Part shown: piece by piece, positions 41,285 to 43,556 of the stretch
Layout of the letters: the number at the start of each line of letters is the position of its first letter
Numbering within the stretch: position 1 is the stretch's first letter
Assembly (NCBI GenBank): GCA_963745135.1
Contig: CAVUWW010000013.1
Span: 1-52,838 of the forward strand
Length of the DNA stretch: 52,838 nucleotides
Origin: an uncultured bacterium
GTDB lineage: Bacteria > Patescibacteriota > Minisyncoccia > UBA6257 > 2-01-FULL-56-20
Direction: 5' to 3'
The notes under the pieces: model-generated
Told to the model about the DNA's origin: nothing
The model's database searches: none
The model's input: only the letters and a program-made list of their open reading frames with translations
Translations under genes and position numbers: made by a program

Positions 41285-43217
41285 ATGGCGAACAGGGCAG
41301 AATTTTTGAATTTGAATCCAAAATCGGCTCGGGAAATTTTATGGAAGACGAACACGGCTTTGCGTTCGGCGGAAAAGGAATTGGCGGCAATCGCGGACGT
41401 ACCGAAAAAAGGGAAGCGCACGGTCGCGAATACTTTCGAGCCGTTAAACCGGGTTTCGATGATTATTGCCGAAGCGCGCAACCGGGCGTCACTTTTTTCC
41501 GCTGCGCATCCGGATTCGAAGATCCGCGCGGCGGCGGAAAAGGCCACGCAGAAGCTCGCGGAATTTTTTCCGAGGATCTATTTGCGGCGCGACATTTATG
41601 AAGCGGTGCAAAGCGTTTCGCCGGAGGGACTTGATGCGGAAGCGAAACGGTTCCGTGAAAAGGAATTGCTGGATTTCAAGCTGACCGGCGTGGACAAGTC
41701 CGCGGACGTGCGGCGTGAAATTCAGCGGCTGACGCGGCGCGGCGTGAAGCTCGGGCAGGCATTCGACCGGAACATCAAAAATGATGTCCGATATGTCGAT
41801 TTGAAGCCAAGCGAACTTGAAGGGCTGCCGGAAGATTATCGGAAAGCGCACGCGCCTAATAAGCACGGCATGGTTCGCCTCTCGACGCAGTATCCGGATT
41901 ATCTGCCGTTCATGCAATACGCGAAGAGCGACGGCGCGCGGCGGCGTTTCAATTTTCTCTTTTTGAACCGTGGCTGGCCGAAGAATGACAAGGTGTTCCG
42001 CGAGCTTTTGGCCGTCCGCCGGCGGCAGGCGCGGCTTTTGGGATTCAAGGATTGGGCGGATTACGCCACGGTGGAAAAGATGACCGGCTCGGCGAAAATC
42101 GTGCAGGCGTTTCTGGATCAAGTTGATCGGCTGACAAAAATACGCGCGGATCGCGACTACCAACTTTTGCTTGCACGAAAACGAAAAGACGACCCAAAAG
42201 CGAAGTCGATCGGCTCATGGGAATCAGTGTATTACGATAATTTGGTTGCGAAAGAAAAAATCGGCTTTGATTCGAAAGAGGTCAGAAATTATTTCCAGTT
42301 CAAAAAAGTGAAAGCGGGGGTTTTGAAAACGGCGGCACGGCTGTTCGGACTGGATTGTCAGCGGGTAAAAGCGTCGGTGTGGCACAAAGATGCCGAGGCA
42401 TTTAACGTGTTTCGCGGAAGAAAGCTTATCGGCCTCTTTTATCTCGATCTCCACCCGCGCACGGGCAAATATGGCCACGCGGCGTGCTTTGACATTCGGC
42501 CGGGCATTCATAGCAAACAGCTTCCCGAGGCGGCGCTGATTTGCAATTTTTCAAAAGAACTGATGAGCCACGACGAGGTCACGACTTTTTTCCACGAGTT
42601 CGGGCATCTTGTCCATTTCATATTGGGCGGCGACCAGCGATGGGCGCGCTACAGCGGTTTTGCGACGGAATGGGATTTCGTCGAGGCGCCGTCGCAGATG
42701 CTCGAGTCGTGGGCGCTTGACTTCGGCACCTTGCGGCAATTTGCTTTCCATCACAAGACCGGAAAGCCGATATCCCGCGATTTGGTCAGCCGCATGCAGA
42801 AAGCCGAAAATTCCGGGAAAGGGATTTGGCAGCGGACAGCAGCTTTTTTACGCGGCGCTGTCGCTGCATTACCACCAGGAACTGTCACCTGCGCGCGCGG
42901 ATTTGCTCGGCATCATGCTGCGCGAGCGGAAAAAATTCAGCCCGTTCGGCTATTTGCCCGGGACGCATCTGCATGCAAGCTTCGGCCATCTGAACGGCTA
43001 CTCGGCGCTTTATTACACCTATACATGGTCGCGCGCCATCGCGGAGGACATCCTGACGCCTTTCCGAAAGAAAGGCATGTATGACCGCGCGACCGCGAAA
43101 AGATATGCCGAGCTGATTCTGGCGCGGGGCGGTTCAAAAGACGCGCGCGAATTGCTGAAGGATTTCCTCGGGCGCGAGTGGAATCTTGAAGCATTCCGGA
43201 GGTGGTTGAAGAAATAG
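41285..43217 (+). pseudogene. M3-family zinc metallopeptidase (oligopeptidase), interrupted by a +1 frame break
   Basis: HEFGHLVH is in ORF 41285..43084. The conserved C-terminus QQLFYAALSLHYHQ...to the end is in ORF 42609..43217. The frames must join between about 42800 and 42840. Confidence 0.75.
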
Positions 43218-43232
43218 GGTTTCATAACAATC

Positions 43233-43258
43233 AAAAACCGCACTTTCGCGCGGTTTTT
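43233..43258. terminator. bidirectional intrinsic terminator
   Basis: Stem aaaaaccgc / gcggttttt with an 8-nt loop, flanked by an A-run and a T-run. Confidence 0.7.
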
Positions 43259-43282
43259 GAACTGGTGGCATAAGGATGCCAC

Positions 43283-43297
43283 GCCAGCCTGTCACCT
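43283..43297 (+). repeat. 15-nt copy of the tRNA-Asp anticodon arm, inverted relative to the gene
   Basis: gccagcctgtcacct is identical to tRNA positions 27-41, including the extra loop base. Confidence 0.8.
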
Positions 43298-43353
43298 TGA
43301 TATTCATAGTACGCGCGTTTTTATGGATGTCAAGCATCCGGAGTCCGCCAACG

Positions 43354-43426
43354 TGGACCGGCGGAGAGTCGAACTCCGATCTGCCAGGTGACAGGCTGGC
43401 CGTGTTACCCTTATCACCACCGGCCC
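43354..43426 (-). tRNA. tRNA-Asp-like (GUC) with an 8-nt anticodon loop
   Basis: Hand-folded: acceptor GGGCCGG/CCGGUCC, T-arm CGGAG-UUCGACU-CUCCG, perfect 5-bp anticodon stem GCCAG/CUGGC enclosing CCUGUCAC (8 nt). Confidence 0.75.
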
Positions 43427-43556
43427 AGCATTTGGCTTTTGAAATATAACATTGCCGATATGAAATTTAGATAAAGAAAAGATAAAAATTTTATGAAGAT
43501 GGCAAAATGACTACAGCCCTCATAAAATAAGCGAAAACAGGTCGTTTAATTTTCGA

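Follow-up and report, generated by a model that had tools for sequence, protein, structure and literature searches.

What is a tRNA-like gene whose anticodon loop is one base too long, and whose anticodon arm recurs in inverted form a short way downstream? The question is raised by a locus on a 52,838-nt contig (CAVUWW010000013.1, assembly GCA_963745135.1) of an uncultured member of the Patescibacteriota; this whole stretch is hereafter called the window, and is contig C13 of a genome of 753 kb in 55 contigs that is 77% complete. A sequence-only reading had placed a tRNA-Asp gene on the minus strand at 43354..43426, had associated its 8-nt loop with frameshift suppression, and had pointed out the inverted copy of its arm, which a promoter-driven small RNA might carry. 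Here we consider it probable that the locus is a module of two RNA genes, a paralog of tRNA-Ala with a free anticodon arm and a private small RNA that pairs with it. To our knowledge, no tRNA paralog with a dedicated, co-evolving antisense RNA gene is known, and a full-text literature search (outside which the large Breaker-lab motif survey supplement lies) found no published description of a two-RNA unit composed of a tRNA-like and an antisense RNA.

The tRNA-like gene and its proposed small-RNA partner

The locus comprises the following features, listed in the order of transcription and with the basis of each assignment.

43457..43499, minus strand: A/T-rich upstream promoter element (TCTTCATAAAATTTTTATCT...ATCTAAATTTCATATC) of the tRNA-like gene (recurring motif in the genome)
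43443..43451, minus strand: extended -10 box TGTTATATT of the tRNA-like gene (read from the sequence)
43432..43436, minus strand: leader segment GCCAA, pairing with the trailer (leader/trailer covariation)
43354..43426, minus strand: alanine-type tRNA-like RNA, a tRNA-Ala paralog (Rfam tRNA model and ARAGORN cloverleaf)
43386..43400, minus strand: target segment, tRNA positions 27-41, spanning the 5' side of the anticodon stem, the whole loop and 2 nt on the 3' side (complements 43283..43297 perfectly over 15 bp)
43347..43352, minus strand: trailer GTTGGC, pairing with the leader (sequence and covariation)
43306..43333, minus strand: sigma-70-type promoter of the antisense small RNA, TTGACA, 16 nt, TACTAT (consensus scan)
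43233..43299, minus strand: predicted antisense small RNA of ~67 nt, with a predicted start at 43298-43300 and an end in the U run 43233-43237 (promoter, complementarity and fold)
43283..43297, minus strand: seed AGGUGACAGGCUGGC at the 5' end of the small RNA (complement of tRNA positions 27-41)
43265..43282, minus strand: small-RNA hairpin GUGGCAU-CCUU-AUGCCAC, also antisense to the D arm of the tRNA-like RNA (fold and duplex prediction)
43231..43260, both strands: bidirectional intrinsic terminator that also serves the convergent M3 peptidase gene (stem of 13 bp, then a T run)

For comparison, ~40 loci were extracted from genomes of the same family. About 30 of the modules are intact; 29 were aligned (alignment A1, on which covariation was measured) and 28 were scored for promoter and duplex.

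The gene at 43354..43426 covers the full Rfam tRNA model (RF00005) with 46.6 bits (cut-off 29), and the covariance alignment puts a one-base insertion in its anticodon loop. The anticodon arm reads GCCAG-CCUGUCAC-CUGGC, the loop CCUGUCAC being 8 nt long, and no alternative stem register that would leave a 7-nt loop was found for this RNA; the position of the gene and its enlarged loop are both as first read. Nor is the extra base a sequencing error, since most relatives share the 8-nt loop and since, in the two copies with 7-nt loops (L032 and L035, both with GUC and G3:U70), the partner carries the matching deletion and fits the shorter loop.

The assignment to aspartate did not hold. ARAGORN names the gene 'tRNA-???', with no assignable amino acid; the RNA carries the alanine marks G3:U70 in the acceptor stem and A73 as discriminator, and in its body, with a 7-bp acceptor, a short D arm, a 4-nt variable loop and the 3' end GGTCCA-C, it matches the genome's tRNA-Ala(CGC) on contig C33. 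For aspartate the genome has a canonical tRNA-Asp(GUC) on contig C26, its loop 7 nt long and its discriminator G73, the aspartate identity element; the proposed search for a second tRNA-Asp thus found one. The window gene is a paralog of tRNA-Ala, and not a tRNA-Asp. In 28 of the 29 aligned copies G3:U70 is retained although pairs 5:68 and 7:66 covary, which argues for selection on the alanine mark; G2:C71 is invariant, and A73 is found in the window copy and in most others. Like the canonical tRNA-Ala, the look-alike has an acceptor stem GGGCC.. with these marks, a D arm, a T arm and a 4-nt variable loop. It differs in its hypervariable arm, its usually 8-nt loop, its dedicated antisense partner, a G1-A72 mismatch in seven module copies, and the lack of GGC; no alanine anticodon (NGC, including GGC) occurs in any of the window-type copies compared. 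CCA is not encoded, only C74 (43353) following A73, and the canonical tRNAs of this genome likewise encode just the first C past the discriminator base. Leader and trailer form a helix that is 88% paired over the 29 modules, with three of its five pairs changed on both sides.

The promoter, hairpin and terminator of the second gene were found where the sequence-only reading had put them. A consensus scan scores the promoter at 10 of 12 matches, and its -35 box, 16-nt spacer and -10 box are present in 28 of 28 modules, with pairwise identities of 0.96, 0.57 and 0.83, respectively. Complementarity to the tRNA-like RNA begins 8 nt past the -10 box in the window and 5-8 nt past it in 26 of 28 modules, a geometry that fits the proposal of a small RNA started at this site and complementary to the anticodon arm. 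Folded alone, the small RNA is predicted to present a free 5' seed, a hairpin and the terminator (-33.6 kcal/mol, z = -4.9). No Rfam family matches it above threshold; sub-threshold matches to Leu leader, RNAI and RsmY were rejected as chance similarities driven by the terminator. Across 43229..43456, the only open reading frames (ORFs) of at least 50 amino acids in six-frame translation are 43019..43282 (minus), 43134..43337 (minus) and 43276..43449 (plus), which span the tRNA-like gene, the small RNA and the terminator and are judged spurious. No ORF for a small toxic peptide, as in type I toxin-antitoxin systems, is found at the module, where the target is a tRNA-like RNA.

Covariation between anticodon arm and seed

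The 15-mer gccagcctgtcacct / GCCAGCCTGTCACCT lies on the plus strand at 43283..43297 and on the minus strand at 43386..43400, as the sequence-only reading had it, and these are its only two occurrences in the genome. A second module of the same genome (C38:7471-7713, minus strand; locus L006) has the same body, anticodon stem and promoter and an equivalent terminator, an Rfam tRNA score of 36.2 bits, and a leader/trailer pair GCCAGTG/CACTGG. Its loop, AUUGCUGC, is also 8 nt long, and its seed GGUAGCAAUCUGGC, again followed by hairpin and terminator, complements its own arm with one G-U pair; loop and downstream segment differ from those of the window in a compensating way, because each seed matches its own loop.

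Complementarity extends beyond the 15 nt. The small RNA is an imperfect antisense of tRNA positions ~2-42 (acceptor 5' strand, D arm and anticodon arm), ~40 nt in all, which RNAduplex pairs with its seed and hairpin region, and the D loop AUAAGG specific to the window copy is mirrored by CCUUAU in the window small RNA. Because the antisense match reaches far past the arm, the small-RNA gene looks like an inverted partial copy of the tRNA 5' half, the complementarity of which would have been kept since. Predicted duplex free energies average -52 kcal/mol for cognate pairs (-61.6 kcal/mol in the window), compared with -34.7 kcal/mol for non-cognate ones, and 24 of the 28 tRNAs have their cognate partner in first place. 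The longest helix, with G-U allowed, averages 14.9 nt in cognate and 7.3 nt in non-cognate combinations; with a mean of only 6.6 nt over 5,800 shuffles of the downstream regions, a chance origin of the window complementarity is excluded at the level of sequence comparison. The few long non-cognate matches are orthologous loci of sister species, and the 29 anticodon-arm sequences compared are all distinct.

On the alignment, 94.9% of the cells of the arm/seed helix are paired, 14 of its 15 pairs are changed on both sides, and 93 cells are compensatory. Its covariation score of 0.693 is reached by none of 500 shuffles (0.209), and sliding the seed by 1-3 columns lowers it to 0.156 or less. The helix is better supported than any other at the locus, including the anticodon stem itself (89% paired), and the inverted copy is functional and not accidental, in support of the sequence-only reading.

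The cells that depart from Watson-Crick pairing are G-U in 24 cases and A-C in 3 (binomial p = 5e-5, the copies not being independent). As a DNA palindrome would show both mismatches equally, the asymmetry fits pairing between RNAs of this strand, and not of DNA. The latter would be implied if the inverted repeat were a site of recombination, inversion or integration in a tRNA gene; tRNA anticodon arms are frequent integrase targets, and the repeat is indeed inverted and flanks ~90 bp. The strand-asymmetric mismatches, however, make sense only for RNA, the inverted arrangement is seen in none of the ~40 loci, no integrase lies nearby, and the repeat sequence is different in every copy. A palindrome or inversion site was discarded on the asymmetry and the constant arrangement, and we regard a role at the level of DNA as the least credible of the explanations considered here.

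The sequence of the arm is free, with only its complementarity to the partner held, because arm and seed vary like the promoter spacer yet remain paired. Pairwise identity is 0.80-0.88 in the acceptor, D arm, variable loop and T arm (0.82-0.88 for acceptor, D arm and T arm), 0.57-0.67 in the anticodon arm (0.57-0.59 on the narrower figure) and 0.57 in the seed, i.e. at the level of the promoter spacer. The loop triplet varies among orthologous and paralogous copies (GUC, GCC, GAC, GCU, ACC and others) and the loop itself is 7, 8 or 9 nt long, with 8 nt in most relatives; relative to L033, L032 has lost one base of the loop and the same base of the partner. Comparison with relatives, which the sequence-only reading had recommended, thus bore out the layout and the arm complementarity, while arm and seed sequences differ from copy to copy and loop length is not fixed. 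The comparative data show two linked genes, a private RNA-RNA complementarity kept by compensatory change, in which each copy matches its own partner only, and a tRNA fold with alanine marks that is retained, the anticodon arm having lost its decoding constraint.

This freedom bears directly on the frameshift suppressor first suggested, in which a tRNA-Asp with an expanded loop would read four-base codons (GACA or similar) and suppress +1 frameshifts under regulation by the downstream copy. The 8-nt loop is real, and a 2-4-2 reading of it puts a pyrimidine at position 33 and a purine at position 37 in most copies. Alanine marks where aspartate uses G73, a normal tRNA-Asp elsewhere in the genome, a triplet or quadruplet that differs between orthologous loci, an arm as variable as neutral spacer and a loop of 7-9 nt nevertheless make such a function very improbable, and the suggestion is not upheld. 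Known +1 frameshift suppressors (sufD, sufA6 and sufB2 types) share the one extra anticodon-loop nucleotide; suppressor tRNAs, however, keep the identity and anticodon of the parent tRNA, whereas the look-alike combines alanine identity with a drifting 'anticodon' and has no matching four-base site at the adjacent frame break.

That break, at a distance of ~500 nt, splits the M3 peptidase gene directly upstream, a HEFGH-containing gene (ORFs 41285..43084 and 42609..43217) whose frame shifts by +1 inside GGGAAAGGGA at window positions 42800-42830; it counts among the points in favour of a suppressor. The in-frame quadruplets at 42803-42830 are only GCCG, GAAA, AATT, TCCG, GGGA and AAAG; neither GACA nor AGCA is in frame, GAC occurs in the third frame, and a link to the module was rejected. 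The break could be a homopolymer assembly error or mark a pseudogene.

Enlarged loops also occur in natural tRNAs. In yeast mitochondria a tRNA-Thr(UAG) has an 8-nt loop, and in Ashbya the tRNA(UAG) is reportedly charged with alanine, CUU/CUA being reassigned to alanine (PMC3113583, PMC3874161). Unlike the look-alike, those tRNAs are described as having an anticodon that does not vary and a definite codon reassignment, and as lacking an antisense partner.

Related modules, orphan units and minimal forms

BLAST over 125 genomes of the same family gave matches in 28, among them 13 of the 23 genomes of one genus and 5 of the 6 of a second, and a single genome has at most four. The 30 intact modules follow one order, namely A/T-rich element, TGnTAnnnT box, leader GCCAAC, tRNA-like gene, trailer C-GTTGGC, small-RNA promoter, seed, hairpin and terminator. 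The TGnTAnnnT box is equally spaced in nearly all 29 aligned modules (A10 and T14 invariant, T9 nearly so), and the small-RNA promoter, TTGAC(A/G), exactly 16 nt and TAnnnT, is followed after 5-8 nt (mostly 8) by a seed segment of 12-18 nt complementary to tRNA positions 27 to ~42. Modules occupy conserved chromosomal positions between housekeeping genes, not mobile DNA.

At eight loci (L003, L004, L012, L026, L037, L055, L056 and L058) the tRNA-like gene is truncated, interrupted or deleted and the promoter, small RNA and terminator are intact; in L012 and L058 the promoter persists in copies that have no tRNA at all. Conversely, none of ~31 intact window-type tRNA-like genes is without a partner. 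In L055 (G090:C2:84400-85350) the tRNA-like gene is split between the D-arm region and the T arm by a perfect palindrome of ~60 nt, a hairpin-type insertion.

The window genome also contains four 'mini' tRNA-like genes of ~70 nt and of alanine type, with a long hairpin in place of the D and anticodon arms. In three of them (C48:10042-10112, minus; C6:1244-1314, plus; C10:33504-33572, plus) the loop of this hairpin has 8 nt, and the gene precedes TTGACA-16-TAnnAT and a seed of 15-17 nt that complements the hairpin; the fourth (C22:20067-20139, minus) has its partner upstream on the opposite strand, divergently encoded (C22:20248-20330, plus). Each of the four thus has its own promoter-driven small RNA, the 5' end of which is complementary to the hairpin over 15-17 bp. 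The mini genes end in ..CCACCG in three cases and, as extracted, in ..CCAC in the C10 copy. A further tRNA-like gene with G3:U70 and A73 (C16:15538-15610, plus; Rfam tRNA 30.8 bits) has a stem of 4 bp and a loop CAUCGACAA of 9 nt; its leader and trailer pair as GTGCCG/CGGCAC, a terminator overlaps its 3' end, and the assembled 77% of the genome yielded no complementary partner for it.

These distributions cut both ways for the idea of an RNA-only poison and antidote, in which an alanine-charged look-alike would misread Asp, Gly or Val codons or shift the frame, and a short-lived small RNA would cover its anticodon. The pair is tightly linked, several mutually non-pairing pairs coexist in a genome, decay is one-sided (eight broken or deleted tRNA-like genes with an intact small RNA, and no intact one partnerless), an indirect hint at a type VIII-like RNA-RNA toxin-antitoxin, L032 and L035 combine normal 7-nt loops and GUC with G3:U70, and the harmless alanine anticodon GGC is used by no copy. 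The modules, however, sit at conserved, vertically inherited chromosomal sites rather than on mobile DNA; the G1-A72 mismatch of seven copies and the 8-9-nt loops of most are poor for decoding; the mini forms, with no anticodon arm, still keep a partner; and the C16 gene persists without one in the assembled sequence. We therefore hold a poison and antidote to be unlikely, and equally so its release by module loss or by a shut-off of transcription, e.g. by phage.

The mini forms also raise the possibility of a link to transfer-messenger RNA (tmRNA), the model of which they match weakly (28-34 bits) via acceptor and T-arm ends. The small RNA could be a working regulator of other targets with the look-alike as sponge or decoy, or the pair could be a tmRNA-like two-piece particle acting on stalled ribosomes. 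Sponges derived from tRNA precursors do exist in Escherichia coli (3'ETS-leuZ). The 753-kb genome, however, holds no further site within one mismatch of the 15-mer or of either seed (window or C38), its canonical tRNAs pair with the seeds over no more than 10 bp, and regulation of other genes or of canonical tRNAs was rejected for want of complementary sites in the genome. No consistent reading frame or stop codon was seen in the small RNAs (by eye only). The genome has a full-length tmRNA (C49:15094-15569, 104.6 bits) and a tmRNA-model match is present in 31 of 31 relatives, in 29 above the family cut-off, so that the module is not a tmRNA replacement either; the window RNA is not among the tmRNA-model matches listed for the genome. 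Its alanine-type acceptor and T-arm are shared with the tRNA-like domain of tmRNA, but it forms a complete cloverleaf, D and anticodon arms included, and tmRNA is not known to have a separate gene for an antisense partner. The tmRNA database does record forms that lack the tag coding sequence, among them a phage form that inhibits tmRNA (PMC11915505). Taken together, we regard both the sponge and the two-piece particle as improbable, more so than a poison and antidote.

Outside the family, modules of the same layout and of unrelated sequence occur in other Patescibacteria families (L179, L180, L188, L185 and L127/L154), and several distant modules encode CCA past the discriminator base. A GTDB-wide pattern scan returned, among the matches listed, mostly ordinary tRNA-Asp and tRNA-Ala genes of Saccharibacteria. 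Among 85 pattern matches in IMG/VR, one convincing module was found (L263, IMGVR_UViG_3300002220_001342, 41 kb); this viral contig carries a G3:U70/A73 tRNA-like gene, TTGACA-17-TATCAT and, 5 nt past the -10 box, a 14-bp complement of the arm. With no match in 50,697 GenBank phage records and only that one viral module, a phage origin was not retained.

Several further observations concern the window genome. The A/T-rich element upstream of the tRNA-like gene also precedes the C38 module and several unrelated genes and RNAs, and is followed each time by a TGnTAnnnT box; the motif (..TTCATAAAATTTTTATCTAAATTTCATATC, with the box ~5 nt later) recurs at window 43457-43499, C3:9437, C35:18762, C48:9455, C53:3466 and C16:15491, and apparently represents the organism's general strong-promoter layout rather than a module-specific one. 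A short promoter-to-terminator unit at C35:18790-18890 encodes a small structured RNA with the conserved core GCGGGC.GGA..ATTTT.G.GATGGGGGCT, and RNAs of this type also lie directly 5' of two modules in a sister genome (L003 and L010; G001:C379). The tRNA-Ile at C10:11940-12013 (minus strand, Rfam 66.8 bits) has the anticodon UAU, which suggests that AUA may be read without lysidine, as in some other reduced genomes.

A proposed mode of action and its meaning

In the two-gene module that we favour, the first gene keeps the tRNA fold and the features that alanyl-tRNA synthetase would use (acceptor stem with G3:U70, A73, D and T arms, 4-nt variable loop). The second would start 8 nt past its own promoter and end at the terminator, giving an RNA of ~67 nt whose 5' end matches positions 27-41 exactly and whose remainder matches the D arm and the acceptor 5' strand only loosely, in both cases by complementarity. 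The single-stranded 5' seed would make first contact with the enlarged anticodon loop; the anticodon stem would then be invaded and its 3' strand displaced, and pairing would spread across the D arm as far as the acceptor 5' strand, giving a duplex of ~40 bp. The look-alike would thereby be unfolded and hence silenced, with ribosome entry blocked, and charging too if unfolding is complete, and the duplex could serve as a substrate for a double-strand RNase. Binding and unfolding of the look-alike in trans is, judging from the sequences, the most likely course. Alanyl-tRNA synthetase does not read the anticodon, so that charging is plausible; the look-alike is probably charged with alanine and probably no regular reader of codons. 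We infer the transcript ends, processing, CCA addition and charging of the module RNAs from genome sequence.

A different mode would be a switch in cis, in which both parts form one transcript and the downstream segment folds back on the tRNA 5' half, inactivating it or directing its processing, a separate small RNA being irrelevant. No terminator lies between the two genes, so that a read-through precursor is likely; the predicted lowest-energy fold of this 208-nt RNA is a long cis duplex (-104.8 kcal/mol, z = -8.1), and the leader/trailer covariation points to a structured precursor. Against such a switch, the canonical and invariant promoter would make the seed the 5' end of a transcript, orphan small-RNA units retain promoter and terminator after loss of the tRNA, the partner of the related C22 gene is divergent on the other strand, and during transcription the cloverleaf would fold before the antisense segment exists. 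An exclusive cis switch thus seems unlikely, if somewhat less so than a poison and antidote. Given a promoter of invariant geometry that places the seed at the predicted start, the orphan units, the divergent C22 partner and the predicted free 5' seed, action in trans is taken as the main mode, with cis pairing in a read-through precursor as a possible addition.

Several points weigh against this interpretation. The absent terminator and the predicted precursor fold mean that pairing could act mainly in cis in the window subtype. Part of the small-RNA 'promoter' might in addition act as a hairpin in RNA, as its -35 and -10 boxes make up an imperfect palindrome, 77% paired in the 29-module alignment with few compensatory changes; this palindrome is absent from the mini-type and distant modules, whereas the -35/16/-10 geometry is universal. 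The module sequences are related, so that the shuffle statistics overstate significance, and unfolding or silencing as the outcome of pairing is a plausible guess.

Among known systems, linked antisense pairs such as ColE1 RNA I/RNA II, hok/sok and SdsR/RyeA come closest in design. They too are adjacent RNA genes with a private, co-evolving specificity and mutually non-pairing copies, and they too proceed from contact between a loop and a single strand to an extended duplex, as would the module. The module differs in having neither a peptide toxin gene nor a role in replication, in targeting a tRNA paralog, and in drawing its partner from an inverted partial copy on the same strand, not from the opposite strand of the same DNA.

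Genes for tRNAs are the most conserved and best annotated of RNA genes, and those of the module are mis-annotated as odd tRNAs ('tRNA-Asp', 'tRNA-???') that can mislead searches for genetic-code changes and frameshift suppressors. The module itself is small and recognisable by sequence, and is found several times per genome in several families of a little-understood phylum. One speculative view, which we hold to be rather unlikely, is that these Patescibacteria possess RNA-only addressable units, in which an alanine-charged tRNA body bears an arm that serves as a freely evolving 'address' read by a private small RNA, either as poison and antidote or as a switch by which, under defined conditions, alanyl-tRNA look-alikes are freed for work other than decoding (ribosome rescue, or alanylation of cell wall or lipids). 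If the small RNA does control an alanine-charged tRNA mimic, this would be a new kind of control exerted on tRNA, and the modules would constitute natural, mutually non-interfering RNA pairs of interest for synthetic biology.

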